Below are positions 2,898 to 34,203 of a stretch of 34,203 nucleotides of DNA, piece after piece (position 1 is the first letter of the stretch; every line of letters starts with the position of its first letter). Both the position numbers and the translations under genes were made by a program. Location: NCBI GenBank assembly GCA_035494495.1, contig DATJGY010000054.1, positions 1 to 34,203 on the forward strand, given 5' to 3'. Below the pieces are notes generated by a model that was not told the DNA's origin, made no database searches, and saw only the letters and a list, made by a program, of their open reading frames with translations. The stretch is from Alphaproteobacteria bacterium. GTDB lineage: Bacteria; Patescibacteriota; Microgenomatia; UBA8517.

Positions 2898-3683
2898 ATG
2901 CGCAAAATTTTTGTTGTCTTCTTATCTTTAATGGTTTTGGGAATTTGCCTTTTTACGCCTATTGCTGCTTTGGCCCAAAGCCCAGAAAGTTTGCTACATG
3001 GCCAGCAAGTTACCTCAGTTTGGCCATTCAATCCACTTAAATACGCCATTCGTGGGGCAGTAGCCTCAGGAGTTCCAGCCAATACAATAGTACTTCTGCT
3101 TCTTTTGCCAATTATCGCTTTTGTCATAGCTTTTGCCAGAAATGTTGTTGGAATCAGAGGTTTCGGAATTTTCTTGCCCGCCGCACTATCTGTAGTTTTT
3201 GTTGCCACAGGCCCAATTATTGGTATTGGCTTATTTTTAGTAATTGTTTTGGTTTCTACACTAGTTCGTATAGTCCTGAGAAAACTCAAAATTAAACTTC
3301 AGTATTTGCCTCGTATGGCTTTTATTCTTTGGGCAGTGGTAGTCGCGGTTCTCTCAATTTTATTTTTGGCTCCCGTTTTGAAATATCAAGCACTTTCCAA
3401 TGTTTCTATCTTTGCCGTATTAATTCTCATTTTACTTGCTGAAGATTTTATAAGAGTACAATTAGGGAAGAGTATTAAAACTGCTTTAAATTTGACTGCA
3501 GAAACACTTATTTTGTCCTTAGTTTCGTACTTTTTTATGACTCTCAAAGTTTTGCAAAATTATGTTTTATTGAATCCTGAAATCTCTCTTTTAGCCGTTG
3601 GAGCACTTGATATTTTACTCGCTAAATATTCTGGCCTCAGATTAATGGAATTTTACAGATTCAGAAAGCTCATTGCTACTTAA
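2898..3683 (+). CDS. signal peptide + 7-TM membrane protein, resembles the 7TM module that partners ATP-grasp ligases (7TM_transglut-like, without the transglutaminase domain)
   Basis: N-terminal signal-like MRKIFVVFLSLMVLGICLFTPIAALA, then seven hydrophobic spans. Motifs GIRGFGIFLPAAL and the C-terminal GLRLMEFYRFRK match my memory of PF14402. It lies directly upstream of an alpha-L-glutamate-ligase-like gene. Confidence 0.6.
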   Translation: MRKIFVVFLSLMVLGICLFTPIAALAQSPESLLHGQQVTSVWPFNPLKYAIRGAVASGVPANTIVLLLLLPIIAFVIAFARNVVGIRGFGIFLPAALSVVFVATGPIIGIGLFLVIVLVSTLVRIVLRKLKIKLQYLPRMAFILWAVVVAVLSILFLAPVLKYQALSNVSIFAVLILILLAEDFIRVQLGKSIKTALNLTAETLILSLVSYFFMTLKVLQNYVLLNPEISLLAVGALDILLAKYSGLRLMEFYRFRKLIAT

Positions 3684-3705
3684 CTATTGATCTACTGATC
3701 TTTCT

Positions 3706-5022: not shown

Positions 5023-5023
5023 A

Positions 5024-5914
5024 ATGAAAAAAATATTAATTTTAACAAGCGGTAAAAAAAGCAAACTCAGATCTTTTAAATTGTCTCTGCGAGATCTAAA
5101 AATTGATCTAACCACAGCCTCGTTTGATGATATTTATTTTGATTCAAATAGTCGAGATTTGATGCTGAAAGGGGAAATCAAACTAACTGATTTTAAAGTA
5201 ATTTATTTTAGATTGGTAGGAAAAAGTTTAGAAACTGCCAGTTTGGTTGCTGAATATGCTAAGAAAAAATGGATTAAAATTATCGACAAAATATACACTA
5301 AATCCCAAGTTTTCCCAATAACTCAAAGTAAGGCTTTGGAGATGAAAGCACTTGCTGATGCTAAAGTTTCCATTCCAAAGACGTTTTTTGGATCAGTTGC
5401 AGAAATTACTAAAAAAGGGCCTACAATGTTTAATTTCCCATTTGTTATTAAAAGCACTTCCGGCAGAAAAGGAAGAGAAGTTTATAGCCCGCAAAATATT
5501 AAAGAACTTCGTGAATTATCAAAAGTTTTAAGTGATGAAGAAAAATCAGGTAAAAGTTTTTTTGCTCAGGAATTCATTAATTGTACAAAAAGAATTAGAG
5601 TTCTAATCGTTGGTGGCAAAATACTTGGAGCAATTAGTCAAGGAACTAAATGGAGAAAAAGAGTTTCTGGCTATGTTCCGGACGAAAATGAGAAAAAAAT
5701 AGAAAAATTTGGGATGAGCAAGATCATTGAAAAGTTGTCATTAGCCGCTTTTTACGCAGTTGGAATTGACATTGCCGGAATTGATATTTTGATTGACGAA
5801 GTAACCGGCAAATATTTGGTGATCGAGGTAAATGCAGCTCCATCTTGGAAATTGATTAAAAAATATTGCAAGATTAATGTTGAATATGAAATCCTTAAAT
5901 TTGTATCAAAATAA
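5024..5914 (+). CDS. RimK-type ATP-grasp ligase paralog 1
   Basis: ATG 5024 lies 1 nt after the upstream stop. Motifs: FPFVIKSTSGRKGREVY, AQEFINCTKRIRVLIVGGKILGAI and GIDILIDEVTGKYLVIEVNAAPS. Confidence 0.7.
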   Translation: MKKILILTSGKKSKLRSFKLSLRDLKIDLTTASFDDIYFDSNSRDLMLKGEIKLTDFKVIYFRLVGKSLETASLVAEYAKKKWIKIIDKIYTKSQVFPITQSKALEMKALADAKVSIPKTFFGSVAEITKKGPTMFNFPFVIKSTSGRKGREVYSPQNIKELRELSKVLSDEEKSGKSFFAQEFINCTKRIRVLIVGGKILGAISQGTKWRKRVSGYVPDENEKKIEKFGMSKIIEKLSLAAFYAVGIDIAGIDILIDEVTGKYLVIEVNAAPSWKLIKKYCKINVEYEILKFVSK

Positions 5915-6488
5915 TTTCAAAAAATTTGGAGTTGACCATAAATCTCTTTTGTGGAAAACGCGTGGCGCGGCCCATCAGAGATTTAGACAATTTTGGAAAG
6001 AAATAAACTTTGACAACAAAAAAGTTTTGGATATTGGTTGTGGTTTTGGTGAGTTTGGAAAGTTTTTGTTAAAGAGATATAAGAATGTTGATTATACGGG
6101 GATTGATATTAATCCAGAATTTATCGCAGCAGCGTCGAAATTAGTTTTGGGAGGAAGATTTGAGGTTGCAGATTTCAATAAATTAGATAGTAAATATCAG
6201 GTTGTGATTGCATCAGGGGTCTTAAATTCGAACACAGAAGGCGACAATTTGGAACACAGAAAAAATGCAATCCAAAAAATGTTTGATCTAACTTCACATG
6301 TTTTGGCTTTTAATATGTTGGGTGGTCACCCAGCTCCAAAAAACAAAAAGGACAGTAATGTTTGGTATGTAGATAGTTTGGAGATTTTGGAATTTTGTAT
6401 GACGTTAACTTCACGAGTAATTCTGCGACAAAATTATCATTCAAAAGATTTTACAATTTTTTTGTACAAAGGGAGGAAAGAGGTATAA
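5877..6488 (+). CDS. class I SAM-dependent methyltransferase
   Basis: Motif I VLDIGCGFGEFG, followed by YTGIDIN and VIASGVL. The start could be 5877 or 5886. It overlaps the upstream gene's 3' end. Confidence 0.8.
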   Translation: MLNMKSLNLYQNNFKKFGVDHKSLLWKTRGAAHQRFRQFWKEINFDNKKVLDIGCGFGEFGKFLLKRYKNVDYTGIDINPEFIAAASKLVLGGRFEVADFNKLDSKYQVVIASGVLNSNTEGDNLEHRKNAIQKMFDLTSHVLAFNMLGGHPAPKNKKDSNVWYVDSLEILEFCMTLTSRVILRQNYHSKDFTIFLYKGRKEV

Positions 6489-6496
6489 TACAACAT

Positions 6497-7072
6497 ATGG
6501 ATACAGAACAAGAAAATTACAACCACAATCTGATCGAAGTTGGCGAGTGGTTTGGTGATATGGAAAAAACTGGGGAAGTTAGAAAAATTGATCAGGTCAC
6601 ATTAAATATAACTTTCGATAGTTTAGGTGGTTCACTGGAGATTAAAGAAGAGGAAGAAAAGTCTCTTAAAGAATACACAAATAAAGCCAGTAAAGAAGGA
6701 ATGATTGCAATTTGGGGAGAATCGAGAATGAAAGATTTTAATAATTTTTGTAAGAGTTGGATAGTCAATTTTGAAAATACTGATGGTAATAAAGAACTCC
6801 CAAAGTTAGACCAATCAGGCAAAAAAAATTCCGGAATGAAACAGTTTTTTCATGAAGTAACTGCTTACGCCTATGGAATTATGGATGAAGAAACATTTGG
6901 TCTTTTTACAGAAACTCGAATTGAAAATGGAAAGTTATGGCAAGAAGGCAAAAAAGATCAAAGAGAAAAGTTAGAAACTCCAAGTTCTAAAGGTGAAAAA
7001 ATATTAATTAGTTCAATTCCGCCTGGATTTATTCCGGATTTTTGGAATTGGTTAAAAACTTCAAAAAAATAA
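6497..7072 (+). CDS. hypothetical acidic protein (191 aa), no recognisable family
   Basis: ATG 6497 lies 8 nt after the methyltransferase stop. Same strand, embedded between ligase genes. No motif recognised. Confidence 0.5.
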   Translation: MDTEQENYNHNLIEVGEWFGDMEKTGEVRKIDQVTLNITFDSLGGSLEIKEEEEKSLKEYTNKASKEGMIAIWGESRMKDFNNFCKSWIVNFENTDGNKELPKLDQSGKKNSGMKQFFHEVTAYAYGIMDEETFGLFTETRIENGKLWQEGKKDQREKLETPSSKGEKILISSIPPGFIPDFWNWLKTSKK

Positions 7073-7074
7073 AA

Positions 7075-7974
7075 TTGAAAAAAATATTAATCCTTGCTGG
7101 GCAGCGAAATGAAAACAAAGATAAATTTATTGAATATCTTACCGAATATTTTCGTGATAAAAATATAGAAATTGATTTGGATATTTTTTCCAATGTTTCT
7201 GTTTTGTTAAATCAAAATAAAGTTGAGATGTTTGTAGGAGACAAAGACATTCGTGATTTTGATTTAGTGTACTTTCGTTCCACAAAAGGTTTCCAAGCTC
7301 TAGCTAAAACCATGGCCACAATTTTGGATTTTTTAGAAATAAAATATATTGATAAAGTTTGGGGAAAAGCTGCTGCGGTGGGGGACAAACTCACATCTTT
7401 TGCTAGGTTAACCACACAAAAATTGCCCGTTATCCCAACTCTTTTTTGCAATGTAAGTAATAAAAAAAAGATACAAGATTTTGCCAGTGAGGTTAATTAT
7501 CCTCTCATTGCCAAAGATTTGGTGGCGCAAAGATTGGAAGGAATATATGTTATCCATTCGATTAATGACATCAATAAATTGCCCGAAGTTAAAGAAAGTG
7601 GTGCAATTGTAAATTATTTATTTCAAAAATTTATTGACATAAAAGCAGAATATAGATTAGTAGTTTTGGGAGATACAGTTCAAGTAACTCATACAAAAGT
7701 TGCTAGAAATTATTCCGGGCATAAAGTTCATCATTTGGATGAAAACAGTACAATTGAATTTTTGGATTCAAATATAATGGATGAAGTAAATAAAATAGCA
7801 GTTAACGGAGCAAAAGCCTTGGATCTTAATATTGCAGGTGTTGATATCTGTATCGAAAAAAGTACCAATAAACCTTGGATAATTGAAGTTAATCGTGGGC
7901 CGGGAATAGATTACGATACTACTTTCTCTCCCGAAATGTCAGAATTCGCCAAATACTTGGAAAAAATTGTATGA
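7075..7974 (+). CDS. RimK-type ATP-grasp ligase paralog 2 (glycine-rich loop degenerate)
   Basis: TTG 7075 gives an N-terminus (M)KKILILAG parallel to paralog 1 (MKKILILTSG). TTG 7042 is an alternative start. Motifs: YRLVVLGDTV and GVDICIEKSTNKPWIIEVNRGPG. The loop YPLIAKDLVAQRLEG lacks the usual GxG. Confidence 0.6.
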   Translation: MKKILILAGQRNENKDKFIEYLTEYFRDKNIEIDLDIFSNVSVLLNQNKVEMFVGDKDIRDFDLVYFRSTKGFQALAKTMATILDFLEIKYIDKVWGKAAAVGDKLTSFARLTTQKLPVIPTLFCNVSNKKKIQDFASEVNYPLIAKDLVAQRLEGIYVIHSINDINKLPEVKESGAIVNYLFQKFIDIKAEYRLVVLGDTVQVTHTKVARNYSGHKVHHLDENSTIEFLDSNIMDEVNKIAVNGAKALDLNIAGVDICIEKSTNKPWIIEVNRGPGIDYDTTFSPEMSEFAKYLEKIV

Positions 7975-8762
7975 CTTACGATTTAGTAATTGTAACCACC
8001 AGCCCTAAAGCTTACGCTCCACAACGAATTAAAGAAGAATTAACAAAGAAGAATTTGTCCTGCAAAGTTTTAAAATATGAAGATGATATTCCTAACGCAA
8101 AACATATTTTCTTTAGAAGTTTCGGAGAAAATGGGAAATATGTTGATCTAATCAAAAAATTAAATAGCCCGAAAGTCATTAATTATAAGTCGTTTAAAAT
8201 TTGGCCAAAGTTAGATAAACTCACTCAATATTTAGAATTGCAAAAAGCTAAAATTCCAGTAGTTGAAACCTCTTTGGCTCCGAGAAATGATTTTCCATTT
8301 ATTGCAAAAGTAAGTAGTAGTAGTCAGGGGCGGGGAGTTGAAAAAATAACTAACGACGAAGATCTTAAAAATTTTGTAAAAAAGCATGCTGGTGAAAAAG
8401 TTTTTTCTGGAAAGATCCTTTTTCAACCATTTTTAACAGCCGGAGAAGATCTCAGAATAATTGTTATTAAAAATAAAGTTTTAGGAGCAATGAAACGTAT
8501 TGCCAGAAAAGGAAAATATCTAACTAATTTTTCGCAAGGTGGAAGAGTAGAAAATTTTAAACTAAATAATGATATTGTCAGTATTGCTTTAGCGGCTGCT
8601 AGCCATTTCAAATTGGATTATTGTGGAGTAGATTTAATGCAGGACAATGGTGGAAATTGGAAGGTTTTAGAGGTAAATAGAGCTTGTCAATTCAAAGGAT
8701 TTGAAAAAGCAACTAATATTAATATTGCCAACTTAGTGATCGAATACTTATTATCTGAATAA
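7971..8762 (+). CDS. RimK-type ATP-grasp ligase paralog 3 (most canonical)
   Basis: ATGA overlap with the upstream gene. Motifs: FPFIAKVSSSSQGRGVEKI, DLRIIVIKNKVLGAMKR, TNFSQGG and GVDLMQDNGGNWKVLEVNR. Confidence 0.75.
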   Translation: MTYDLVIVTTSPKAYAPQRIKEELTKKNLSCKVLKYEDDIPNAKHIFFRSFGENGKYVDLIKKLNSPKVINYKSFKIWPKLDKLTQYLELQKAKIPVVETSLAPRNDFPFIAKVSSSSQGRGVEKITNDEDLKNFVKKHAGEKVFSGKILFQPFLTAGEDLRIIVIKNKVLGAMKRIARKGKYLTNFSQGGRVENFKLNNDIVSIALAAASHFKLDYCGVDLMQDNGGNWKVLEVNRACQFKGFEKATNINIANLVIEYLLSE

Positions 8763-8827: not shown

Positions 8828-9217
8828 TTACTTCAACTCTACCTTTGCTCCTGCTGCTGTTAATTTTTCGCTAGCTGCTTTAGCATCTTCTGCTTTAGCA
8901 TCTTTCAAAATTTCAGCTGGAACTGTTTCGGTCATACCTTTGGCTTCCATAAGAGTTAAGTTTTGATTAATCTCACGAAGAGCTTTGATTACACCGATTT
9001 TGTTAGCTCCTGCATCAGTCATTACAACAGTTTTTGTACTGCTCTCATCACTTGCTGGAGCGGCGTCGCCGGCCGTAGCTGCAGCAGCGGAGGCTGGGGC
9101 GGCTACTGGCATTGCTGAGACTCCAAGTTTATCTTGAAGTGCAGTTACAAGTTCTGAAAGTTCTAGAACTGTAAGCTTTGTAACTTCTTCTACTAATTTT
9201 TCCACATTGTTTGCCAT
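8828..9217 (-). CDS. rplL: 50S ribosomal protein L7/L12
   Basis: Ala-rich hinge and a C-terminal domain ...KIGVIKALREI...LMEAK...AEDAKAASEKLTAAGAKVELK. SD AGGAGGTG lies upstream. Confidence 0.95.
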   Translation of the reverse strand: MANNVEKLVEEVTKLTVLELSELVTALQDKLGVSAMPVAAPASAAAATAGDAAPASDESSTKTVVMTDAGANKIGVIKALREINQNLTLMEAKGMTETVPAEILKDAKAEDAKAASEKLTAAGAKVELK

Positions 9218-12810: not shown

Positions 12811-13479
12811 ATGGAAATGCCAAGCTTTAAATTTGAAAATGCTGTTTGGAAGAATGATTTTAAGATTGTAGCTGGAATTGATGAAGTGGGAAGAGGATCT
12901 TTTGCCGGACCTGTAGTCGCTGCGGCTGTCGCCTTTGCTCCAATGTCCAATTACCAATTTCCAATGACCAATGAATTTTCAAATGAAATAATTATCAATG
13001 ACTCAAAGCAGTTAACTGCGAAGCAGAGGGAAATTGCAGACATTTGGATTCGGAAACATGCTTTGGGTTTTGGAATTGGGGAAGCAAGTGTAGCTCAAAT
13101 TAATAAATTTGGTATCAAAAAAGCCTCAGAAATTGCCTTTAGAAAAGCGATAATCAATAGTCGGTTAGCTGTAGACTTTTTATTAATCGACGCCTTTTAC
13201 ATTCCCTATGTTAAAAATTTAAGGCGCAAAAACCAGAAAGCAATAATAAAAGGGGATACAAAATCAATTTCAATTGCCGCGGCTTCAATTATCGCAAAAG
13301 TTTACAGAGATAAATTAATGGCAAGTTTAAGTAAACAGTCCAAGTACAAGAAATACGGTTGGGACAAAAATAAAGGATATGGAACCAAACAACATCGCGA
13401 AGCGATATTAAAATATGGAATTACCAAATTGCACCGAAAGCTTTTTGTTAGAAACTGCGTTTCTTCTCAAGTTCAATAG
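12811..13479 (+). CDS. rnhB: ribonuclease HII
   Basis: GIDEVGRGSFAGPVV, NDSKQL, ASIIAK and HR motifs are present. Confidence 0.9.
   Translation: MEMPSFKFENAVWKNDFKIVAGIDEVGRGSFAGPVVAAAVAFAPMSNYQFPMTNEFSNEIIINDSKQLTAKQREIADIWIRKHALGFGIGEASVAQINKFGIKKASEIAFRKAIINSRLAVDFLLIDAFYIPYVKNLRRKNQKAIIKGDTKSISIAAASIIAKVYRDKLMASLSKQSKYKKYGWDKNKGYGTKQHREAILKYGITKLHRKLFVRNCVSSQVQ
12938..12972. repeat. five tandem heptamers NNCCAAT inside rnhB, translated in frame
   Basis: CTCCAAT GTCCAAT TACCAAT TTCCAAT GACCAAT. It encodes part of APMSNYQFPMTNEF between the DEVGRG and NDSK motifs. Confidence 0.85.
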
Positions 13480-17132: not shown

Positions 17133-18317
17133 ATGGAATTATACTATCAAAAGAAGTATAATCGCTTACTTTTTAAATTTATGTTTAACATTGCTGATTT
17201 TGCAAGTTCAATAGTTGTCCTGACTGGTCCCTCTGGATCGGGTAAAGATGAAGAGCGTAAAAAATTGTTGGCAGAATGTGAAGCTAAAGGGATTAAATTT
17301 TTTTATAGATCTTCTGGTGATCTCTTCAGAGCGGCTGCGAAAAGTAATAAAGCTATTTCCTCAGAGATGGCAAAAGGTTTTGTTGGAACACTTGAAACAA
17401 TAATGCAACCACTTGTTGATGTTTTTGAGCAGCATATTGTAACTATTCTTGAAGGCAAAAATTCAATTTTAGCTTTGGATGGAGTTTTAAGGATTGGGAA
17501 AAAGACTAGAGAAGATGGTGTCGTTATTCCACCTCAAATAGAACAAGTTGGAGAAGCTTTTACTCGCGCTTTAAGACATGTTTTGGAGAATAGACCTGAA
17601 TTGCGAGAAAAACTAGATTCTGAATTAGTATCTCAAGTTTTAAGTCACGAAGATGTTCCTTGTTTAGAATTGCAACCAAGTGGCATTACTCTTGATTTTG
17701 CTTCGAATATTCAACATTGTCAGCTGGTGATTCCAAGAGGAGACGCCGAAGCCCTAATGCGTGTTAGGTCGAGTAAAGCTTTGACTAAAATAAAGGAAGA
17801 GCTTGAAAATAATCATCGTGATAAAGATGTAGAGAATCTGTTAAAGTTTTTGGATAAAGCTTGTTGGATTCAATCTGGAGAAATATTCGATAAACCAAAT
17901 ATATTTGCCCATTTTACCGATGCAGAAGGGGCCGTTGCTGATTATTATATGAAAACATTAATAAAGGACTTTTATGGATCTCAAGGATTTGAAACTCCTG
18001 ATAAGCCATCATTAAAATCTGCAATTGAAGGATACCTTCTAAAAGCCGAAATTACTCTTCCCGAAGGTTTTGAAATTCCAAGAGAAGATGATGATAAAAG
18101 AAAAACCAAAGATGGTAGATTGAATGCGTATAGAGATGAAACGATACCAATGTTAGTAAGTCTGGGACTTACTCATGAAGAAGGATCGAGATTGACTGAA
18201 ATTAGCAACGGCCCAAGTAGAATGGATTATGAAACTTTCAAACAAAATGCTCAAATAGCAGCCGAAAAAATTGTGGAATATACCATGCCGTACAGTGGAA
18301 ACAGAGAAAGAAGATAA
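17133..18317 (+). CDS. adenylate-kinase-like P-loop kinase with a very large internal insertion
   Basis: P-loop LTGPSGSGKD, SSGDLFRAAA (compare AK STGDxLRAAV), LDGVLR (compare LDGFPR) and, about 200 aa later, REDDDKRKTKDGRLNAYRDETIPM (compare RxDDxxexxxxRLxxYxxxTxP). ATG 17181 is an alternative start. Confidence 0.55.
   Translation: MELYYQKKYNRLLFKFMFNIADFASSIVVLTGPSGSGKDEERKKLLAECEAKGIKFFYRSSGDLFRAAAKSNKAISSEMAKGFVGTLETIMQPLVDVFEQHIVTILEGKNSILALDGVLRIGKKTREDGVVIPPQIEQVGEAFTRALRHVLENRPELREKLDSELVSQVLSHEDVPCLELQPSGITLDFASNIQHCQLVIPRGDAEALMRVRSSKALTKIKEELENNHRDKDVENLLKFLDKACWIQSGEIFDKPNIFAHFTDAEGAVADYYMKTLIKDFYGSQGFETPDKPSLKSAIEGYLLKAEITLPEGFEIPREDDDKRKTKDGRLNAYRDETIPMLVSLGLTHEEGSRLTEISNGPSRMDYETFKQNAQIAAEKIVEYTMPYSGNRERR
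17138..17143 (-). promoter_or_regulatory. -10 TATAAT, 7 nt upstream of queA ATG 17130 (leaderless candidate)
   Basis: Reverse complement of 17138-17143 is TATAAT. No SD. Confidence 0.4.
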
Positions 18318-22359: not shown

Positions 22360-22893
22360 TTAGATTAACTCCACCTCTTCCCACTCATCATCTTCCACTT
22401 TATATAATGGCTTCTTTTCCTCCAAAAGTCGATCAACAAACAAAATCCCATCCAAATGATCAATTTCATGCAAAACTATTTGGGCATTAAAATCCAAAAA
22501 TTCTTCGGTAATTTTTTCACCTTTTTCATTTAAATATTTTAAAGTTACCTTGTTGGCACGTTTTAAAGGACCATAATAATAGGGAAGAGACAGGCAGCCT
22601 TCAAGAATTTCGTTGTGGGATTTGCGTGAACGGTGAACAGTAGACGGTGAACCGATTTTCAGAATTTCTGGGTTAATTACTATACGTTTGAAGTTTTTGT
22701 AGTTAGCAAGAAAAATTCTTACATTTTTGCCAATTTGGGGTGCAGCCAAACCAACACCTTCTGGAGCTTTTTGAGTTTTCAAAGTATCTTGTAAGTCCTG
22801 AACTAGTTTCAAGATCTTTTTATCAATTTTCTTAACAGGTTGGGATTTCTTCCGCAAAATCGGATCACCAGATTGGATTATTTTTTGAATCAT
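22360..22893 (-). CDS. def: peptide deformylase
   Basis: GVGLAAPQIG, EGCLS and HEIDHLDG motifs. Confidence 0.95.
   Translation of the reverse strand: MIQKIIQSGDPILRKKSQPVKKIDKKILKLVQDLQDTLKTQKAPEGVGLAAPQIGKNVRIFLANYKNFKRIVINPEILKIGSPSTVHRSRKSHNEILEGCLSLPYYYGPLKRANKVTLKYLNEKGEKITEEFLDFNAQIVLHEIDHLDGILFVDRLLEEKKPLYKVEDDEWEEVELI
22625..22652. repeat. four tandem heptamers of the GTTCACN family inside def, translated in frame
   Basis: Plus strand reads CGTGAAC GGTGAAC AGTAGAC GGTGAAC. The coding strand reads GTTCACC GTCTACT GTTCACC GTTCACG and encodes GSPSTVHRSR just before EGCLS. Confidence 0.85.
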
Positions 22894-23624: not shown

Positions 23625-25484
23625 TTATTTGAGGCTTTCAAGTGTTTGTTTTGTCAACTCATCTTTTGGATCGATAAATTGCAAAACATATTCCAACTGT
23701 TTTTTTGCTTCTTGTTTATCATTTTTCTCAATTAGTAAAAAAGCATATGCAAGTCTAGCTTCTTTGTAATTTGCTTTTAGATTAATTGTTTTTTTAAGAA
23801 TCGCGATCGCTTTGTCTTGGTCGCCAAGACGGGCGTAAGTTAAACCCAAATTGTAATAAAGTTTTGCATCAGTTGGAGAATATTTTATGGCGTCTATTAA
23901 AACATCTTTTGCTGAGTCTAAATCATTAAGCCTTAAAAAAATCCCAAATCTAGATTTTTTAAAACTTGGATTGTTTGGCGAAAGATCAATAGCTTTTTGG
24001 GATTCACTAAGATCAGAATTTTGTACAGCTAGAGCATTATGATAGATAGCTTGATTTGGTTGTAAATTAATCGCACCTGCAAAATCTTTTTTGGCGTAGA
24101 GAAGATCAGCATACCAGTACGTCGTTATGCGCGATAGTACATAGAACATAGTACATAGTACAAAGAATATAAAAAATTTCTGTAAGTTTTCTAATTTGTT
24201 CTCGGTTTGTACTTTGTACTCTGTACTGAGTACTACTCCCACCGCTGGGAACAAGAAAAGTTCTAACTGTGTTGGAACTACTGAAAAGCCGAAGAAATTT
24301 GTAATTAATAAACTGAAATATCCTGCCAATAAAGCATAATTTCTAGTTTTTATAAAAATTACTAGTGAAAACAAAATTAAAATGAAATATGAAATCAGTC
24401 CAAAAGCTCCAGAATTTGCAGCGAAGTTAAGATACTCATTATGTGCTTTGTTGTAAATAAAATCCCATTCAGAAACTAAGTTATGTTCCACTGGGCGGAA
24501 TTGGGGATAGGAAAATGCAAATGTTTCAAGACCCGACCCGAAAATTGGATAATGACGCCAAACTTCTAGCGCTCCCTTCCAAACTATTTTGCGGATTTCA
24601 CCTGACTCAGTACCACCAGATTCCAAGGCAGGTGTTGCAGATTGCGGAATGCGGGAGTTAGTATTGGGATTAAAAATAAAAAATAAAATTAAAAATGAAA
24701 AATTAAAAATTAAGAACGATTTCCAATTTTCTCTAAAATTTTTAATTAAAGAGATCATCCAAAAAATCAGTGAGCTAATTCCAAATGCAATTAGTCCAGA
24801 TCGAGACTTAGTAAATAATAAAGTTATGAAAAATAAATTAGATAAACAAAAACAAATTAAAAAATTTATAAATTTGTGATTTGAAAATTTATTGAAAATT
24901 GAAAATTGAAGATTGAAAATTATTGGTAACAGTGCAACCAAAAAAGCAGCAAGCCAATTCGGTTGACCCAATGTTGAAAAAACTCGGGATTGTACATCCT
25001 GCACCCAAATATTTTTGTCAATTCCAAAATGCTGGAGAATGCCGTAAATACAAACTATAACGGCAGAAAATAGTACACAGTACAAAGTACGAAGAGCAGA
25101 TTTTTTATCTAAATTGGAAACAAAAGCCCAGTAAAGCAGACTATAGCAAATGGTCGATAGCAAGCCGCCGTTAAAGCGTGAGTAATATCCAAAGAGTGAA
25201 GTTTGTGGATCAAGGGAAAAAATGGTTGAAATGATTTGTGACAAAAGAAAAATTAACAGTGGAATATCAAGAAGAGTTTTTTGAAAAATAAATTTCCTTT
25301 CTAAAATACATCGAATTATCCAAGTTGCAATTATTAAAGTGGTGAGAATGTAGACAAGAACCATTTTGTTAAATTCAAAAACCTCAGAAGTAAAAGGCCA
25401 AAGAATTAAAGGAGTAAAAAAAAGTAAAAAGGCAAAGAGGAAAAAAATTAGTTTTTTCACTTTATTTTTTGACTTTTGACTCAA
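23625..25484 (-). CDS. O-antigen ligase/polymerase-like (Wzy_C) polytopic membrane protein with C-terminal TPR repeats
   Basis: Many TM spans. IYNKAHNEYLNFAANSGAFGL is the typical Wzy_C loop. The C-terminus has TPR-like repeats (AKLYYNLGLTYARLGDQDKAI...). Confidence 0.75.
   Translation of the reverse strand: MSQKSKNKVKKLIFFLFAFLLFFTPLILWPFTSEVFEFNKMVLVYILTTLIIATWIIRCILERKFIFQKTLLDIPLLIFLLSQIISTIFSLDPQTSLFGYYSRFNGGLLSTICYSLLYWAFVSNLDKKSALRTLYCVLFSAVIVCIYGILQHFGIDKNIWVQDVQSRVFSTLGQPNWLAAFLVALLPIIFNLQFSIFNKFSNHKFINFLICFCLSNLFFITLLFTKSRSGLIAFGISSLIFWMISLIKNFRENWKSFLIFNFSFLILFFIFNPNTNSRIPQSATPALESGGTESGEIRKIVWKGALEVWRHYPIFGSGLETFAFSYPQFRPVEHNLVSEWDFIYNKAHNEYLNFAANSGAFGLISYFILILFSLVIFIKTRNYALLAGYFSLLITNFFGFSVVPTQLELFLFPAVGVVLSTEYKVQTENKLENLQKFFIFFVLCTMFYVLSRITTYWYADLLYAKKDFAGAINLQPNQAIYHNALAVQNSDLSESQKAIDLSPNNPSFKKSRFGIFLRLNDLDSAKDVLIDAIKYSPTDAKLYYNLGLTYARLGDQDKAIAILKKTINLKANYKEARLAYAFLLIEKNDKQEAKKQLEYVLQFIDPKDELTKQTLESLK
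24136..24163. repeat. four tandem heptamers AGTACAN (in frame in the Wzy-like gene)
   Basis: AGTACAT AGAACAT AGTACAT AGTACAA. Confidence 0.85.
24207..24234. repeat. four tandem heptamers NNGTACT, inverted relative to 24136-24163
   Basis: TTGTACT TTGTACT CTGTACT GAGTACT. Confidence 0.85.
24690..24717. repeat. A/T-rich period-7 tract (NAAAAAT x about 4)
   Basis: TAAAAAT GAAAAAT TAAAAAT TAAGAAC. This may simply be low complexity encoding an F/L/I-rich TM segment. Confidence 0.4.
24891..24918. repeat. four tandem heptamers ATTGAAA
   Basis: ATTGAAA ATTGAAA ATTGAAG ATTGAAA. Encodes part of NLQFSIFNKF. Confidence 0.75.
25072..25092. repeat. three tandem heptamers AGTACNN (same GTAC family)
   Basis: AGTACAC AGTACAA AGTACGA, followed by a degenerate AGAGCAG. 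Confidence 0.7.
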
Positions 25485-28584: not shown

Positions 28585-30066
28585 ATGCAATCTTGGCTTT
28601 CGTGGTTTTTGAGGGGACTTCTGTTTGTTGCATTTTTAATATTGTTGGTAAAAATGTTTGAACTTCAAATTATCAAAGGAGAATACTATCGTCATCTTTC
28701 AGAAGAAAATCGTATTAAACATATAGCGATTACCGCAGATAGAGGAAGGATTCTCGCTTCGGGAGGAGAGTTGTTAGCAGGTAACAAAGATGGAAACAGG
28801 ATATACCCGCTCGGTAGTAATTCTGCCCATTTGATAGGCTATTTAAGTAAAGTAAATAGCGAAGAAATTAACACTATTAATCCAAAATGCCCTGAAAAAG
28901 GTCCACGTATTTCCGGCATGATGCTTGGAAAAACCGGATTGGAAGAAGAGTACGAATGTGAACTTTTGGGAATTCCCGGCGAAGAATTAATTGAGGTTGA
29001 TGCTAAGGGCGAGAAACTTAGATCGCTTGGCAAGAAAGATCCGATTCCCGGACAAGATATAACAACAACTATTGATTATGGAATACAACTTGCAACCGCC
29101 CAAGCAATGGAAGGTAAAAAAGGCGCTGCAATTGTTACAACTCCACAGGGTGAAGTTTTGGCTTTTTATTCCGGCCCTTCTTTTGATCCGCAAAAGATTT
29201 CCGATTCTCTTGCGAGTCCTGATTTGCCATTTTTCAATCGAGTTATAAGTGGAACTTTTCACCCGGGCTCAGTTTTTAAGCCATTGGTAGCGCTTGCCGC
29301 ACTGGAGGAGCGTGCGATTGATAAAAATTTTTCATACAACGATCAAGGTGTAATTAATGTTGGTACTTTTTCGTATTCAAATTGGTATTTCAGTGAATTC
29401 GGAAGAACTGAAGGCCAGATTGGTTTAACCAAAGCTTTGGCAAGATCAACTGATACTTTTTTTTATAAAATTGGTGAGATGGTTGGACCTGAAAAAATTG
29501 CGTCTTGGGCGCAAAAATTTGGTTTAGATAAAAAAACCGGAATTGATTTGCCAGGCGAAAAAGCTGGATTAATTCCAACTCCCGAGTGGAAGAAGAAAAC
29601 AATTGGTGAATCTTGGTTTTTGGGAAATACATATCACATGGCAATTGGACAAGGAGATGTAGCTGTAACGCCTTTGGAAATTAATACATATATTTCTGCA
29701 ATTGCAAACAACGGGAATTTTTGTATTCCACATTTGATTAATAAAACTTCAGATTGCATTAATTTAAAGGTTAAACAGGAAAATATTGACGTAATTAAAG
29801 AGGGTATGAAAGAAGCGTGCAGTGAGGGCGGAACGGCTTATACTTTTTTTGACTTTGCCGCGAAACACGATGATATTCAGGTAGCTTGTAAAACTGGAAC
29901 GGCAGAGGTGGGAACAGATGGCACTCCGCATGCTTGGTTTACATTAATGGCACCACTTGAAAATCCACAGGTTGTTGTGACAATTTTGATTGAAAAAGGC
30001 GGCCAAGGTTCGCAAGTTGCAGGCCCTATTGCACGAAAAATTCTTGACTATGTATATTTTAGGTAA
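28585..30066 (+). CDS. mrdA: penicillin-binding protein 2 (class B transpeptidase), short N-terminal domain
   Basis: N-terminal TM segment. SxxK as GSVFKP, and KTGTAE. Confidence 0.85.
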   Translation: MQSWLSWFLRGLLFVAFLILLVKMFELQIIKGEYYRHLSEENRIKHIAITADRGRILASGGELLAGNKDGNRIYPLGSNSAHLIGYLSKVNSEEINTINPKCPEKGPRISGMMLGKTGLEEEYECELLGIPGEELIEVDAKGEKLRSLGKKDPIPGQDITTTIDYGIQLATAQAMEGKKGAAIVTTPQGEVLAFYSGPSFDPQKISDSLASPDLPFFNRVISGTFHPGSVFKPLVALAALEERAIDKNFSYNDQGVINVGTFSYSNWYFSEFGRTEGQIGLTKALARSTDTFFYKIGEMVGPEKIASWAQKFGLDKKTGIDLPGEKAGLIPTPEWKKKTIGESWFLGNTYHMAIGQGDVAVTPLEINTYISAIANNGNFCIPHLINKTSDCINLKVKQENIDVIKEGMKEACSEGGTAYTFFDFAAKHDDIQVACKTGTAEVGTDGTPHAWFTLMAPLENPQVVVTILIEKGGQGSQVAGPIARKILDYVYFR

Positions 30067-30595
30067 CCTACTCAAATCAGATAAAAAGGCCATCGCTGTT
30101 GTTGGATCAAGAAATATGTCAGCTCGCGGCGAAAAATTAACCAGAGATTTTGTAAAAGAATTAGTTACGAATGGATTCACGATTATTTCAGGATTGGCGC
30201 GAGGAATTGACACAATCGCTCATCAAACAGCTTTGGAAAATGGAGGGCGAACAATTGCAGTTTTGGGTTGTGGACTAGACACAATTTACCCTTCGGAGAA
30301 TAAAAATTTAGCTCAAAAAATAATTAAACATGGCGCTTTGGTCTCCAAATTTCCACCGGGAACTAAACCATTTGGCAAAAATTTTTTGGCGAGGAATAAA
30401 ACTATAGTTGAGTTATCACAAGCAGTTTTGATTATTGAAGGGGAAAAAAGAAGTGGAACTCTCTCAACCGCAGCTCATGCGGCAAACTTGGGAATTGATG
30501 TTTTTGCAATTCCAGGTAGCGAGGCAACTGATTGGTTAATCGAAGAAGGAGCAAATAGTGTAAAATCACCTGAAGAGTTATTAGAAAATTTATGA
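30050..30595 (+). CDS. dprA: DNA-processing protein DprA, Rossmann-fold core only
   Basis: IAVVGSRNMSARGEKL..., ISGLARGIDTIAHQTAL, TIAVLGCGLD and RNKTI. The conserved dprA-topA linkage is present. Confidence 0.8.
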   Translation: MYILGNLLKSDKKAIAVVGSRNMSARGEKLTRDFVKELVTNGFTIISGLARGIDTIAHQTALENGGRTIAVLGCGLDTIYPSENKNLAQKIIKHGALVSKFPPGTKPFGKNFLARNKTIVELSQAVLIIEGEKRSGTLSTAAHAANLGIDVFAIPGSEATDWLIEEGANSVKSPEELLENL

Positions 30596-32565
30596 ACCTA
30601 ATCATCGTTGAATCACCAACTAAAGCCAAGACTCTTGGGAAATTTCTTGGAAAAGATTATGTGGTTGAGGCAACTATGGGCCATATTAAAGATTTACCAA
30701 AAAGCAAACTTGGTGTGGATATTGAACATGATTTTAAACCTGATTTTATTGAAGTTGAAAAAAGAGCTGCAACTATAAAACTTCTTAAATCTAGCGCTAA
30801 AAAAGCAAAAATAATTTTTATAGCATCAGATCCTGACCGCGAAGGAGAAGCTATTGCTCAACATGTAAATGACATAATTTCTGTTCACGGTTCACCGTTG
30901 ACTATTCACCGTATAACTTTTCACGAAATTACAAAGGAAGCAGTAGAAGAAGCTTTAAATCATCCGGGTAAAATTAATCAAGATCTTGTTGATGCCCAAA
31001 CTGCACGCCGAGTTCTTGATCGTTTGGTTGGCTATAAACTCTCACCTCTTTTATGGAAAAAAGTTAGGGTTGGTTTATCAGCAGGGCGTGTTCAATCAGT
31101 TGCCGTTCGATTGATCGTTGAAAAAGAACGGGAAATTGAAAAGTTTAAATCAGATGAATATTGGGAAATATATGTAACAGTTCACCGTTCACCGTTGACG
31201 GTTGACAAGTTTACAGTCCAACTTATCAAACAGGAAATTAAAAACAAAACACAAGCTGACAAAATTTTGGCTGATTTAGAAAAAGCAAATTACAAAGTTC
31301 TTGATGTTAAGAAAAGGCAAGTTGTAAAAAATCCTTATCCACCGTTTACAACCTCAACCATGACCCAAACTGCAGCAAGGCTTTTTGGCTGGTCTTCCAA
31401 AAAAACCATGTCAATTGCTCAAGGACTTTATGAAGAAGGTTTGATTACATACCATAGAACCGATTCATTAAATTTAAATTTTGCGGCAGTTGAAAAAGCT
31501 AGACAACATATTAGCAAAGAATATGGGCAAAATTATCTTCCAGAAAAACCAAGATTGTACAAAACAACTTCTAAATCTGCACAAGAAGCACATGAGGCCA
31601 TCCGTGTGACGGATGTGGGCCGTGAACCGTCAACAGTCAACGGTGAACATGGAGAACAAAAATTATATGATTTAATTTGGAAAAGATTTCTTGCATGCCA
31701 GATGGCATCAGCAATCTATGACGAAACAACTATCGACGTTTCCGCCGCTGTTCACAGTTCACCGTTCACAGTTCACTATCTTCGCGCCTCTGGTCAAATT
31801 ATGATCTTCGACGGTTGGCGAAAATTATTCCCTCTTGATTCTCAAGTTGTAATCTTGCCTGATGTTAAAAAAGATGAGGAATTAAAGAAAATCAAGGTTT
31901 GGGGAGAACAAAAGTTTACACAACCGCCCGCAAGATTTAATGAAGCTTCGTTAATCAAAACTTTAGAAAAGTTGGGGATTGGCCGGCCAAGTACTTATGC
32001 TCCAACAATTTCTACAATTCAAGTTCGAAATTATGTTGAGAAAAAAGAAGGCAAATTTTTCCCGACGACAATTGGAATTGCTGTCAATGATTTTTTGATT
32101 GGCAATTTTCCAGACACATTTGATTATGGATTTACAGCCGGAATGGAAGGCAAATTGGATGAGGTTGCGAATGGAAAACTCAAATGGCAAAAAGAAATTG
32201 GAAGTTTCTGGAAACCTTTGAGCAAAAAAATAGTTAATGTCGAGAAAAATTCAACAAGAGTAAAAATTGAAGTTGAAAAATTAGGTAAAAAATGCCCAGA
32301 TTGTAAGGATGGAGAATTGGTAATTAGAACAGGGAGATTTGGCAAATTTATTTCCTGCTCGCTTTTCCCAGAGTGTAAACATACTGAAAAATACTTAGAG
32401 AAAACTGGAATGCAGTGTCCGGAATGCGGAAGTGGGGACGTGATTGTCAAAAAATCAGGAAAGGGGAGAAAGTTTTTTGGTTGCTCCAGATATCCAGAAT
32501 GTAAATTTGCTTCTTGGCAAATTCCAAAAAAAGAGGAAAATACTACAAATGGAAAGAGTACATGA
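30592..32565 (+). CDS. topA: DNA topoisomerase I with two C-terminal C4 zinc ribbons
   Basis: Toprim domain (IIVESPTKAKT, DPDREGEAIA), active-site region ITYHRTDS, and CPDC...CSLFPEC and CPEC...CSRYPEC. Confidence 0.95.
   Translation: MNLIIVESPTKAKTLGKFLGKDYVVEATMGHIKDLPKSKLGVDIEHDFKPDFIEVEKRAATIKLLKSSAKKAKIIFIASDPDREGEAIAQHVNDIISVHGSPLTIHRITFHEITKEAVEEALNHPGKINQDLVDAQTARRVLDRLVGYKLSPLLWKKVRVGLSAGRVQSVAVRLIVEKEREIEKFKSDEYWEIYVTVHRSPLTVDKFTVQLIKQEIKNKTQADKILADLEKANYKVLDVKKRQVVKNPYPPFTTSTMTQTAARLFGWSSKKTMSIAQGLYEEGLITYHRTDSLNLNFAAVEKARQHISKEYGQNYLPEKPRLYKTTSKSAQEAHEAIRVTDVGREPSTVNGEHGEQKLYDLIWKRFLACQMASAIYDETTIDVSAAVHSSPFTVHYLRASGQIMIFDGWRKLFPLDSQVVILPDVKKDEELKKIKVWGEQKFTQPPARFNEASLIKTLEKLGIGRPSTYAPTISTIQVRNYVEKKEGKFFPTTIGIAVNDFLIGNFPDTFDYGFTAGMEGKLDEVANGKLKWQKEIGSFWKPLSKKIVNVEKNSTRVKIEVEKLGKKCPDCKDGELVIRTGRFGKFISCSLFPECKHTEKYLEKTGMQCPECGSGDVIVKKSGKGRKFFGCSRYPECKFASWQIPKKEENTTNGKST
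30883..30910. repeat. heptamer block 1 in topA (4 x 7 nt)
   Basis: GTTCACG GTTCACC GTTGACT ATTCACC; encodes VHGSPLTIH. Confidence 0.9.
31180..31207. repeat. heptamer block 2 in topA (4 x 7 nt)
   Basis: GTTCACC GTTCACC GTTGACG GTTGACA; encodes VHRSPLTVD. Confidence 0.9.
31621..31648. repeat. heptamer block 3 in topA (4 x 7 nt, inverted orientation)
   Basis: CGTGAAC CGTCAAC AGTCAAC GGTGAAC; encodes REPSTVNGE. Confidence 0.9.
31750..31777. repeat. heptamer block 4 in topA (4 x 7 nt)
   Basis: GTTCACA GTTCACC GTTCACA GTTCACT; encodes VHSSPFTVH. Confidence 0.9.
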
Positions 32566-33160
32566 GAACCGACCTCCTTTAGAAACTGTGTATGGTACCC
32601 TTCCAGACTGGGCGGTAAAAGAACATGTAAGTAGTGGATATATAGGTATAGATCCATTATCTCCTGATTGGGAAAAAAAAATGGGACCTGTAACTATGGA
32701 TTTTCATATGAGTGGACATATTGAAGTTCCCAAAATTGAACCACATTGGCATATTGATACAGCACAAAAGGTTAATGGAAATCACTATGATGTTAGAGAT
32801 CTAGAACCAAAAGGAGCCTTCATTATGCAACCGGGACAATTTATTATTGTTGCAACCAAAGAAAAGTTAACACTACCTAATGATATGGTGGGTAGATTGG
32901 AAGGAAGAAGTAGTCTTGCACGAATGGGTTTGGTTGTTCATTTAACTGCTGGAAGATTTGATCCTGGTTATAATAATAACCCAGTTCTTGAACTAAAAAA
33001 TAATGGTCAAACAGATATCATAATATACGAAGGAATGCCTATATGTGCATTTTCTTTTGAACGCCTAATGGCATCTGTTGAAAGAAGTTATGCAGTTCGA
33101 GGAAGATATACAGGAACAGATATAAAACCTAATTTTGATAGAAAAGATTTACAATTATAA
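32549..33160 (+). CDS. dcd: dCTP deaminase
   Basis: GRLEGRSSLARMGLVVHLTAGRFDPGYNNNPVLELKNNG matches the Dcd core, including the catalytic Glu. ATG 32549 overlaps the topA 3' end. Confidence 0.85.
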   Translation: MERVHENRPPLETVYGTLPDWAVKEHVSSGYIGIDPLSPDWEKKMGPVTMDFHMSGHIEVPKIEPHWHIDTAQKVNGNHYDVRDLEPKGAFIMQPGQFIIVATKEKLTLPNDMVGRLEGRSSLARMGLVVHLTAGRFDPGYNNNPVLELKNNGQTDIIIYEGMPICAFSFERLMASVERSYAVRGRYTGTDIKPNFDRKDLQL

Positions 33161-33163
33161 AAT

Positions 33164-33712
33164 ATGCCAATAGGACCTGAAAGATTACTTGAATTGGTGA
33201 CAACACAAGGATTAGTTAAGGGTTTATCAGAAAGAGAATTAACTAATCCTGAAGGAGCGGGTTTTGATTTGCGACTTGGCCAGGTCTATAAACTTGTCCA
33301 AACTCCAGATGCATATTTAGGTATTAAAGACAGAAAAACTCCAGACATTGAATTGATTGCATCGTATAAGAATGATAAAGAAGTTGCTGATTACATAATA
33401 GGTCCTGGTGATTTTGTTTTAGTTCGAACGATTGAATCAGTGAAATTACCAGTTGATATCGCAGGCTACTGTTTTACTAGGTCAACTCTCTTTAGATCTG
33501 GTTTAGAACTTCTTTGTACTCAGGCTGCCCCGGGTTATGAAGGTGAATTAACGTTTGGTTTAAAAAATGTTGGACCAATGCCTATAAAGATAGAAATGGG
33601 AGCTCGAATTGCCCATATTCAATTTGAACCAGTTGATGGTGGGGGCAATGCTTACAGGGGTCAATGGCAAGGTGGGCGTGTGTCTACTGATGGAGAGGAA
33701 ACTCAAGTTTAA
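33164..33712 (+). CDS. second dCTP deaminase/dUTPase-superfamily protein (Dcd-type dUTPase or bifunctional Dcd-Dut candidate)
   Basis: GFDLRLG, TRSTLFRSGLELLCTQAAPGYEGELTFGLKNVG and ARIAHIQF. Confidence 0.7.
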   Translation: MPIGPERLLELVTTQGLVKGLSERELTNPEGAGFDLRLGQVYKLVQTPDAYLGIKDRKTPDIELIASYKNDKEVADYIIGPGDFVLVRTIESVKLPVDIAGYCFTRSTLFRSGLELLCTQAAPGYEGELTFGLKNVGPMPIKIEMGARIAHIQFEPVDGGGNAYRGQWQGGRVSTDGEETQV

Positions 33713-33714
33713 AT

Positions 33715-34203
33715 ATGTTTAAAGATTTATCACCAGAACAAAGAGGGGCAAAAGAAACTCAGCCATCGTATAACGTAGAACCAAGAGTTTACCCTATGGG
33801 TTTTATACCCACAATTAAAGATAGATTGGTGGACTTTGCCCAGAATACTTTAGGAGAAAGAAATGTGCAACTTAGCACTCTAGGTAAGAATTTAATTGAT
33901 GCAATTCAAAAAGTAGATGAAGGTGAAAATCTTCAAGAAGTTTTTAATTTAGCTCAACAAGTAAAAGATTTTGCAGAAGAAGGTGGAAAAATATCACATG
34001 AAGAAATCGAATTTGTAAATAGTGCATTGCGCACAGAGGAAGAATTGGCTGTTATTTTTGCCAAGGTTTCAAGAAGTGCGGGTTCTTTTGAAGACATTGC
34101 AAGAACAGTTACGGAAGAAGGTGCTAGAAAATTCCATGAGAAATGGACGACAAGTTTAGAAGGATATGGACACGCGTCTGTTGCTGAACATGCGATTGTT
34201 CAC
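33715..34203 (+). CDS. thyX: FAD-dependent thymidylate synthase ThyX, N-terminal part (3' end outside window)
   Basis: Open frame from ATG 33715 to the window end. ...KVSRSAGSFEDI...GYGHASVAEHAIVH resembles the ThyX GHxSxxEH motif, but it is reached only after about 150 aa. Confidence 0.6.
   Translation, partial: MFKDLSPEQRGAKETQPSYNVEPRVYPMGFIPTIKDRLVDFAQNTLGERNVQLSTLGKNLIDAIQKVDEGENLQEVFNLAQQVKDFAEEGGKISHEEIEFVNSALRTEEELAVIFAKVSRSAGSFEDIARTVTEEGARKFHEKWTTSLEGYGHASVAEHAIVH

Follow-up and report, generated by a model that had tools for sequence, protein, structure and literature searches.

The topoisomerase I gene (topA) on the 34,203-nt contig DATJGY010000054.1, analysed over its whole length and here called the window, carries four short blocks of tandem heptamers that are translated in frame. 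We conclude that these blocks are very probably heptanucleotide simple sequence repeat (SSR) arrays that originated at the level of the DNA. They belong to an excess of heptamer arrays that is lineage-wide in the candidate phyla radiation (CPR, Patescibacteria), and not to one dispersed family peculiar to topA. Within the literature searched, the habit of CPR genes to carry in-frame heptamer arrays of about four units is previously undescribed. The search returned no account of heptamer SSRs in Patescibacteria, with most subscription journals lying outside its scope.

The gene topA (30592–32565, plus strand) encodes a type IA DNA topoisomerase I of 657 aa, as assigned from the open reading frame (ORF) and its translation, from Pfam and from the match to E. 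coli TopA (4RUL, E = 1e-145). Pfam, run on the identical database protein P0001, which stems from a 569-kb metagenomic contig, finds the Toprim, Topoisom_bac and Zn_ribbon_Top1 domains. Each block is 28 nt long, consists of four GTTCACN/GTTGACN heptamers, starts at codon phase 0 and is read in frame. Block 1 (30883–30910, plus strand, GTTCACG GTTCACC GTTGACT ATTCACC) encodes VHGSPLTIH(R) in the loop following a Toprim helix. Block 2 (31180–31207, plus strand, GTTCACC GTTCACC GTTGACG GTTGACA) encodes VHRSPLTVD(K) at the tip of a beta-hairpin. Block 3 (31621–31648) is inverted, reads CGTGAAC CGTCAAC AGTCAAC GGTGAAC on the plus strand and encodes REPSTVNGE(H). Block 4 (31750–31777, plus strand, GTTCACA GTTCACC GTTCACA GTTCACT) encodes VHSSPFTVH(Y) in a hairpin turn. 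The preliminary description, made from the sequence alone, had reported four blocks of four 7-mers read through without stops, and positions, units and reading are all exactly as it gave them. Its claims that the repeat is far from chance and GC-rich hold as well. The two-unit pattern GTTSACNGTTSAC, allowing at most one mismatch, matches 14 times in the window compared with 0.23 times in dinucleotide shuffles, and 12 of the 14 matches lie in topA. GC content is 0.43–0.53 in the blocks and about 0.37–0.39 in the surrounding kilobases. The common codon phase, which had been pointed out for the forward copies and extends to all four blocks, means less than it might seem to. A perfect heptamer array gives the identical cyclic 7-residue peptide in all three frames, V-H-R-S-P-F-T for (GTTCACC)n, so that a shared phase is not remarkable in itself. 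In the reverse orientation, the unit GGTGAAC yields a TGA stop if it starts at codon position 2. Block 3 has GTCAAC exactly there, and its second unit must be GTCAAC because GTGAAC in that codon phase would read TGA.

The repeat signal belongs overall to the DNA and not to the peptide. Synonymous codons were resampled for each block peptide with the codon usage of the window. The 7-periodicity of the actual codons exceeds what the peptides need in blocks 1–4 (P = 0.0014, 1.5e-4, 5e-5 and 1e-4), and also in two further arrays of the window described below, in the peptide deformylase gene (P = 0.003) and in the RNase HII gene (P = 3.5e-4). Our assignment to the DNA level follows from this excess of periodicity over the prediction from codon usage, and from the presence of other units in the same loops elsewhere. 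Related genomes give a divided answer to the question, raised by the preliminary description, whether the same peptides are encoded by non-periodic codons. At the position of block 1, three relatives (L002, L564 and L580) encode HRSP(I/V)T with periodic codons. At the position of block 3, L004 encodes REPSSVVGE in codons that lack the periodicity and match block 3 at about 72% by hand count; this sequence has the look of a block 3 homologue that decayed or was never homogenised. These similar peptides are what can be said for the view that the periodicity is a side effect of selection for a peptide motif, VHxSPxTVH. It is set against by the over-periodic codons, by the different peptide that the inverted block gives and by the other units and peptides of other lineages. 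An assembly artefact is countered by the in-frame reading and by arrays that are identical in independent assemblies, in L002 and L003 as well as for P0041 on 17 contigs. Taken together, peptide motif and artefact are barely credible, and the selected protein motif that had been offered as an alternative is rejected.

The relatives of the window are Patescibacteria of the Microgenomates/Woesebacteria group. For a census, period-7 arrays of at least three copies were counted with Tandem Repeats Finder (TRF) in de-duplicated syntenic neighbourhoods of these relatives and in unrelated bacteria. Microgenomates contain 77 such arrays in 39 loci (641 kb), followed by 11 arrays at period 8, the second commonest SSR period of the group, and by at most three at any other period. 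Other CPR bacteria contain 20 period-7 arrays in 21 loci (253 kb). In 20 loci (336 kb) of non-CPR bacteria, TRF finds no period-7 array; the arrays there have periods of 6, 9, 12 and 18, plus one of 14, nearly all multiples of three. AT-richness alone is insufficient as a cause, because one Woesebacteria locus with a GC content of 30% is free of arrays, as are the shuffles. The density of arrays is patchy, with 15 of the 39 Microgenomates loci free of them and others reaching 0.3–0.4 per kb. The closest relative of the window, L001, with a TopA 79% identical, lacks all four topA blocks. Among the octamers, an array of (AATAAGCA)n in the 16064 region of L002 differs in length by 21 nt between L002 and L564.

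The 97 CPR arrays are built from 65 distinct units with a mean GC content of 0.23, which makes the GTTSAC family of the window unusually GC-rich for CPR arrays. Seventy-two arrays lie inside stop-free ORFs of at least 120 aa and 25 outside them. The DNA outside long ORFs makes up only 9.5% of the bases, so its 25 arrays amount to a 2.7-fold enrichment (P = 3e-6). The relative depletion in coding DNA fits purifying selection, as expected. Copy number differs between the two locations (Fisher P = 0.008). In coding DNA, 49 of the 72 arrays have 4.0–4.9 copies, with a median length of 31 nt and a maximum of 39 nt, compared with 9 of the 25 arrays outside long ORFs, where up to 7 copies and 55 nt are reached.

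The preliminary description had noted the repeats in topA and missed that arrays with several units are spread over the window. A fifth array of the GTTCAC family lies in the peptide deformylase gene (def, 22626–22653, minus strand), where the coding strand reads GGTTCAC CGTCTAC TGTTCAC CGTTCAC and encodes GSPSTVHRS. The RNase HII gene carries (CCAATGN)x5 at 12940–12974 on the plus strand (CCAATGT CCAATTA CCAATTT CCAATGA CCAATGA), encoding PMSNYQFPMTNE. Four arrays fall into a minus-strand gene for a Wzy_C/TPR membrane protein. They are ATAGTAC x4 as read on the plus strand (24134–24162), TTTGTAC TTTGTAC TCTGTAC TGAGTAC (24206–24234), which is inverted relative to the 24134 array, ATTGAAA x4.4 (24891–24921) and AGTACAC AGTACAA AGTACGA (25072–25094). 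All arrays of these three genes are in frame. When four copies and a self-match of 85% or more are required, seven period-7 arrays are counted in the window and none at periods 4–6 or 8–12. At 76% self-match it holds nine, compared with 0.14 in shuffles. Over both settings the shuffles give 0–0.14 arrays of period 7, and no array of the window has a period of 8–14. The units are diverse (GTTSACN, CCAATGN, GTAC-type, ATTGAAA), and within the 34 kb the GTTSACN family is clustered, with four arrays in topA, one in def and none elsewhere in the window. An AT-only tract of (ATTAAAA)x6.7 at 24669–24713, also inside the Wzy_C/TPR ORF, was left out of the clean heptamer arrays as low complexity; TRF scores it at periods 13 and 19 as well. 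The last letters of the window (34198–34203) are GTTCAC, within a gene annotated as a 588-aa ThyX, and another array of the family may begin immediately past the window end.

Heptamer arrays recur at few places in topA. In 53 CPR topA genes, 25 period-7 arrays compare with 3, 8, 2 and 0 arrays at periods 5, 6, 8 and 9, and 23 of the 25 fall into five short windows (+185–222, +279–331, +574–631, +989–1062 and +1154–1201 nt). The last four of these windows are the sites of blocks 1–4 and are numbered here as hot spots, or sites, 1 to 4. An alignment of 24 TopA orthologues places all four blocks within indel-prone variable loops, in line with the earlier description of them as lying in variable segments between conserved blocks. 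In an AlphaFold model, whose modest quality (pLDDT 65.5) restricts its use to secondary-structure context, the blocks are turns between secondary-structure elements. Block 1 lies between helix 83–96 and strand 104–108, block 2 in the turn joining strands 189–198 and 206–211, and block 3 in the loop preceding helix 353–368. The alignment and the structural mapping, both suggested as checks in the preliminary description, also bear on its wording that the repeat inserts into or converts loop-coding DNA, and each half of that wording finds its counterpart. Block 4 is a true insertion of 7 residues, a net gain of exactly 21 nt by comparison with the majority of CPR orthologues and with E. coli TopA. 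Its segment measures 27 nt and the corresponding segment in L004 and L569 measures 6 nt, with GTTTAT as the residual sequence in L569. Blocks 1, 2 and 3 differ from E. coli TopA by +2, +2 and −1 aa and replace loop DNA of similar length. A difference of exactly 21 nt from array-free orthologues is found for five independent arrays (window block 4, L540, L530, L565 and L529), and no difference of +15 or +18 nt occurs among the array segments located by their flanks in other lineages. Block 1 shares length and register with the arrays of L002, L564 and L580. Similar recurrence is seen in the other genes. In the deformylase, the loop that follows INPEIL has GTTCAC-type units in the window, ATTAGCN x4 in L001 and ATGGAAA x5 in L004, and one transmembrane segment of the Wzy protein (the 24134 array) carries arrays with related TACT-core units in the window, L002 and L004.

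Comparisons between relatives indicate how the arrays are inherited. They include no strain close to the genome of the window, the P0001 cluster consisting of a single member. L002 and L003, one species from two samples, have identical arrays and differ by only 16 SNPs. All 16 fall within 226 bp (17470–17695) near the frr/rseP region, which suggests a small recombination patch. Between L002 and L564 (85% DNA identity), six arrays have kept place and copy number. Their identity of 90% lies inside the 80–94% range of their own flanks, and extra conservation as a sign of function was therefore rejected. Three arrays were gained or lost as whole blocks. L564 has gained a 45-nt (NTAATTG)x5 array at a distance of 1.4 kb from an older one with this unit, and the other two differences are an ATGGAAN x4 array upstream of topA and an array at topA site 4 of L564. 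The last units of this site-4 array (TGCTACA TTCTACA TACTACT TGCTACG) are the conserved Y-L-L-R codons, in register, and it is the clearest candidate case for growth from a local seed. The 25072 array of the window, common in place and length to L565, L002 and L564, is judged from this distribution to be old. Block 1, which recurs in L002, L564 and L580, would likewise be an old array. The mid-gene position in loops of essential housekeeping genes, the identity of arrays between independent samples and the stability over 15% divergence are unlike a phase-variable contingency locus. The indel spectrum between L531 and L535 (93% identity) has no 7- or 21-nt signature, and both genomes are heptamer-poor, so that the pair is uninformative. 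They carry a perfect (GTGAATA)x3.3 array with an ATTCAC core (L531 909–931, L535 1004–1026), which is also found in L575, L625 and L591 (Woesebacteria). This array apparently lies outside a real gene, adjoins flanks that are 100% identical, and is absent from L534.

Tandem amplification in a heptamer register, followed by a filter for frame, stops and loops, fits most of these data, and we favour it with somewhat better than even confidence. In this model, an array would arise essentially at a single stroke, through repeated slippage or renewed copying in a 7-nt register. Copying would begin at a short local seed and typically add three units, the smallest expansion that preserves the frame because 3 x 7 = 21 nt = 7 codons. 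Selection would then retain those arrays that have no in-frame stop and lie in tolerant surface loops or membrane segments, and the frame filter would account for the exact count of four units. After birth, arrays would be stably inherited and decay through substitution. More speculatively, the five arrays of the same unit could have been copied from one another at short distance, for instance if the template was switched between direct and inverted copies. The arrays would need no function of their own, and the outcome would be lineage-specific loop insertions of about 7 residues.

Several observations weigh against this amplification model. It gives no molecular reason for the 7-nt register and names no enzyme. 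Blocks 1–3 do not show the +21 nt, so that a simple expansion would need additional deletions or a conversion step. Beside these three blocks no in-register seed is found, the look-alikes being one base off, and the RNase HII array likewise has no in-register seed in the flanking conserved codons. A CAATGA in conserved I-N-D codons 27 nt downstream of that array is one base out of register. The seed idea thus rests on L564 site 4 and on the comparison of block 4 with L569, because the other unit-like strings of the window are out of register. No array shows a stepwise change in copy number, be it between L002 and L003, between L002 and L564 or among the flank-located segments, which is unusual for microsatellite slippage. 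Five arrays of the same unit are not producible by independent local seeding of random units. At site 1, carriers of TCACC-type arrays fall into three separate clades of a neighbour-joining tree, a distribution that recurrent origin, exchange between lineages and selection fit about equally well; L001, the sister of the window, has an alternative CAAAT-type form with +7 residues there. Recurrent rewriting of the loops, or else exchange or sorting of alleles, would give such a pattern. This tree, whose deep branches are short and which carries no support values, is compatible with one origin of the site-1 arrays as well as with several. Finally, a preference for four units is also described for intergenic arrays of Xanthomonas and Nostoc, where it lies beyond the reach of a frame filter (PMC4692102).

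The amplification model also leaves aside the period of 7, the replacement at blocks 1–3, the five same-unit arrays and the patchiness among sister lineages. We regard a more far-reaching proposal as unlikely. In it, the arrays would be the footprint of a dedicated, horizontally patchy activity of DNA synthesis or repair (a reiterative polymerase, a primase or an enzyme like a reverse transcriptase) with a 7-nt register. It would add about three extra units per event at a lesion and re-copy arrays nearby in either orientation. Such an activity would be a main source of lineage-specific CPR loop insertions and would also stand behind repeats of the short tandemly repeated repetitive (STRR) type in cyanobacteria, Xanthomonas, Beggiatoaceae and phages.

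The relation between arrays of one unit deserves separate consideration. Five of about 11 arrays in the window belong to one unit family, each with exactly four units. Block 2 is complementary to block 3 at 89% over 27 nt; over 20 nt the figure is 95%, and the C/G variants follow one pattern in both. These observations, together with the inverted pairs described below, suggest, short of proof, copying between nearby arrays through template switching. Along with the replacement of loops by blocks 1–3, the gain of L564 close to an older array of the same unit, and the reappearance of TCAC-core arrays in unrelated clades at two topA sites (1 and 4), they can also be taken as support for a specific 28-nt (GTTSACN)x4 cassette, a dispersed mini-repeat that overwrites loop DNA via gene conversion, template switching or mobility. 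This reading comes near to the main idea of the preliminary description. We consider such a cassette improbable, if worth keeping in mind. The blocks have no common flanks, terminal inverted repeats or target duplications, an insertion of 28 nt would break the frame, and the GTTSACN family is a small minority among the 65 units of the 97 CPR arrays. Block 4 fits an in-place expansion of +21 nt beside a residue resembling GTTTAT, and the closest relative, L001, has no block. The absence of such mobile-element features is also the reason why the likeness to Rickettsia palindromic elements, drawn in the preliminary description, fails. These elements are palindromic mobile elements of 100–150 bp with family-wide identity that insert in frame. 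They share with the window blocks the toleration of repeats in frame in conserved genes, at permissive surface positions. The blocks differ in being 28 nt long and individually non-palindromic, in having no sign of mobility, and in that only block 4 is a net insertion.

Arrays in opposite orientation can pair. The 24134 and 24206 arrays of the Wzy_C/TPR gene form an inverted GTAC-type pair that folds to a hairpin (z = −4.1). In the minimum-free-energy fold, blocks 3 and 4 form a weak pair (z = −2.0); equally good folds are reached by 6 of 200 shuffles. In the distant CPR genome L544, (GAAATTA)x6 and (TTTCTAA)x7 lie back to back at 8020–8113 directly upstream of topA; they are mutual reverse complements and are predicted to form a stem of about 40 bp. 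All three pairs could be read as products of selection for hairpins of mRNA or single-stranded DNA between forward and inverted arrays. We think this very unlikely, since most arrays are solitary, the fold of topA only marginally beats shuffles, and pairing follows automatically once the same unit is present in both orientations. A motif under selection at the DNA or RNA level, the other alternative of the preliminary description, finds little support.

A DNA-level motif could also be a binding site. The omega repressor of Inc18 plasmids (pSM19035), a ribbon-helix-helix protein, binds WATCACW heptads at promoters and centromeres. The window arrays resemble these operators in form only, with contiguous direct and inverted 7-bp units and a TCAC core, and L002 even reads GATCACC GTTCACC. 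They differ in location, being intragenic where the operators sit at promoters or centromeres, and in the cognate protein, for no ribbon-helix-helix or partition gene appears in Pfam scans of 30 window ORFs. It is conceivable that GTTCACN/GTTGACN arrays are sites for a heptad-reading protein (an omega/ParG-type ribbon-helix-helix protein or a nucleoid or segregation protein) or a DNA-uptake signal; we rate the chance of this as small. Such sites would be tolerated within genes at places that the encoded protein permits. Apart from form, this idea could draw on the L002/L564 arrays being as conserved as their flanks with periodicity kept at synonymous sites, and on a collection of viral sequences in which GTTSACN arrays often stand directly upstream of a ribosome-binding site and ATG. 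It has to contend with most CPR arrays having unrelated AT-rich units, with their position in coding loops away from promoters, with L001, which manages without the blocks, and with the control patterns in the viral collection.

In that collection, GTTSACN x3 occurs on at least 120 contigs with GC contents of 0.32–0.73. Permuted units occur on 57 and 115, the same bases at a spacing of 8 on 111 and at a spacing of 6 on at least 120. The collection counts were therefore rejected as proof that GTTSACN or period 7 is special; they indicate no more than that a very large database contains many short tandem arrays. The content of the contigs is more telling. Those seeded by one heptamer array hold 286 heptamer arrays in 1.04 Mb, and those seeded at spacing 6 or 8 hold essentially the seed alone at that period. 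Heptamer-rich genomes form a class, with many units per contig. Four of the viral contigs (L017, L036, L048 and L039) have 10–19 heptamer arrays each, with many units. At the viral loci L048 (10581–10620), L026 (1282–1314) and L054, GTTCACN arrays stop within a few bases of a following ribosome-binding site and ATG.

This arrangement resembles that of the TAACTGA repeats of marine Beggiatoaceae, some cyanobacteria and some Bacteroidetes. Most of these precede a start codon by a few nucleotides, and a role in binding a regulator has been proposed for them (PMC4679880). The TAACTGA repeats are heptamer direct repeats with 2–6 copies per set, have a patchy distribution and are occasionally read through in ORFs as 7-residue peptide repeats, and in this they resemble the CPR arrays. 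They differ in having one dominant unit, stop codons in one orientation and a location upstream of genes. The STRR repeats of heterocystous cyanobacteria are the classical heptamer arrays, with units CCCCAGT, TTGGTCA and CAACAGT. The preliminary description had drawn an analogy to them, and it had found the right repeat class. Both sets consist of tandem heptamers, with several unit families per genome dispersed on the chromosome. The cyanobacterial units are unrelated, mostly intergenic and often present in many copies. The shared class implies no homology, and by units and host the window arrays fall outside STRR1–3.

The broader class to which the blocks belong is that of bacterial heptanucleotide SSRs. 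In many bacteria these repeats are reported to outnumber every other class of long SSR, and slippage over a polymerase contact of about 7 nt has been proposed as their cause (Mrazek et al. 2007 via PMC4679880). It is further reported that SSRs with a unit length not divisible by three are mostly non-coding, that long SSRs of 5–11 nt are typical of large genomes (PMC4679880, PMC4692102), and that GGGNATC arrays of Xanthomonas and Nostoc have a modal size of about four units (PMC4692102). The window blocks have the characters of the class, namely tandem 7-nt units in at least three copies, a period-7 excess and several unrelated units. Head-to-tail arrangement and many units per genome are likewise common to CPR arrays and bacterial heptanucleotide SSRs at large, and the copy number of about four is shared with the GGGNATC arrays. 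The location is different. Bacterial heptanucleotide SSRs are mostly intergenic, a described tendency and no strict criterion, and by number the CPR arrays depart from it, with 72 of 97 in ORFs, although their density per base is still 2.7-fold higher outside. The CPR arrays are mainly intragenic, also in essential genes, in genomes of about 1 Mb or less, with a ceiling of 4–5 units and in recurrent loops.

We conclude that the excess of heptanucleotide SSRs extends to very small genomes and to coding DNA, which was unforeseen from earlier surveys. CPR proteins are noted for lineage-specific insertions. The heptamer arrays are a concrete candidate source of these, as they supply 7-residue modules to the same loops of essential enzymes such as topoisomerase I, peptide deformylase and RNase HII. 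They mark tolerant surface loops in conserved proteins, and they can confound alignments and phylogenies of CPR marker genes. The sharp contrast between array-rich and array-free sister lineages may reflect a replication or repair factor.

The remaining observations concern other genes of the window. The sole strong non-heptamer tandem repeat is a perfect 15-nt x2 duplication (CTGCTTTAGCATCTT) at 8875–8904 in the L7/L12 ribosomal protein gene, in frame and equivalent to 5 residues. A same-strand cluster at 2898–8762 comprises a 7TM_transglut membrane protein, a sugar-transfer ATP-grasp fused to a Zn_protease-like domain, three RimK-like ATP-grasp proteins, a SAM methyltransferase and an ORF (6395–7072) with no Pfam match. 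By its content, the cluster looks like a peptide-ligation or modification operon. A small PD-(D/E)XK nuclease gene (PF13366, 12374–12739) lies between nusG and rnhB. Immediately before topA, the DprA ORF (29990–30595) encodes about 200 aa, compared with 360 aa in L001 and L002; that of L004 is also short, with 194 aa. The DprA ORF shares bases with the penicillin-binding-protein ORF that lies upstream and, at its stop, with the start of topA (ATGA). In the region 32444–33712 two dCTP-deaminase-like genes are adjacent, followed on the 569-kb contig by the unusually long ThyX of 588 aa and a dUTPase-like gene. This pyrimidine gene block is unlike that of the relatives, which have ThyA/DHFR or a ThyX of 318 aa in its place.

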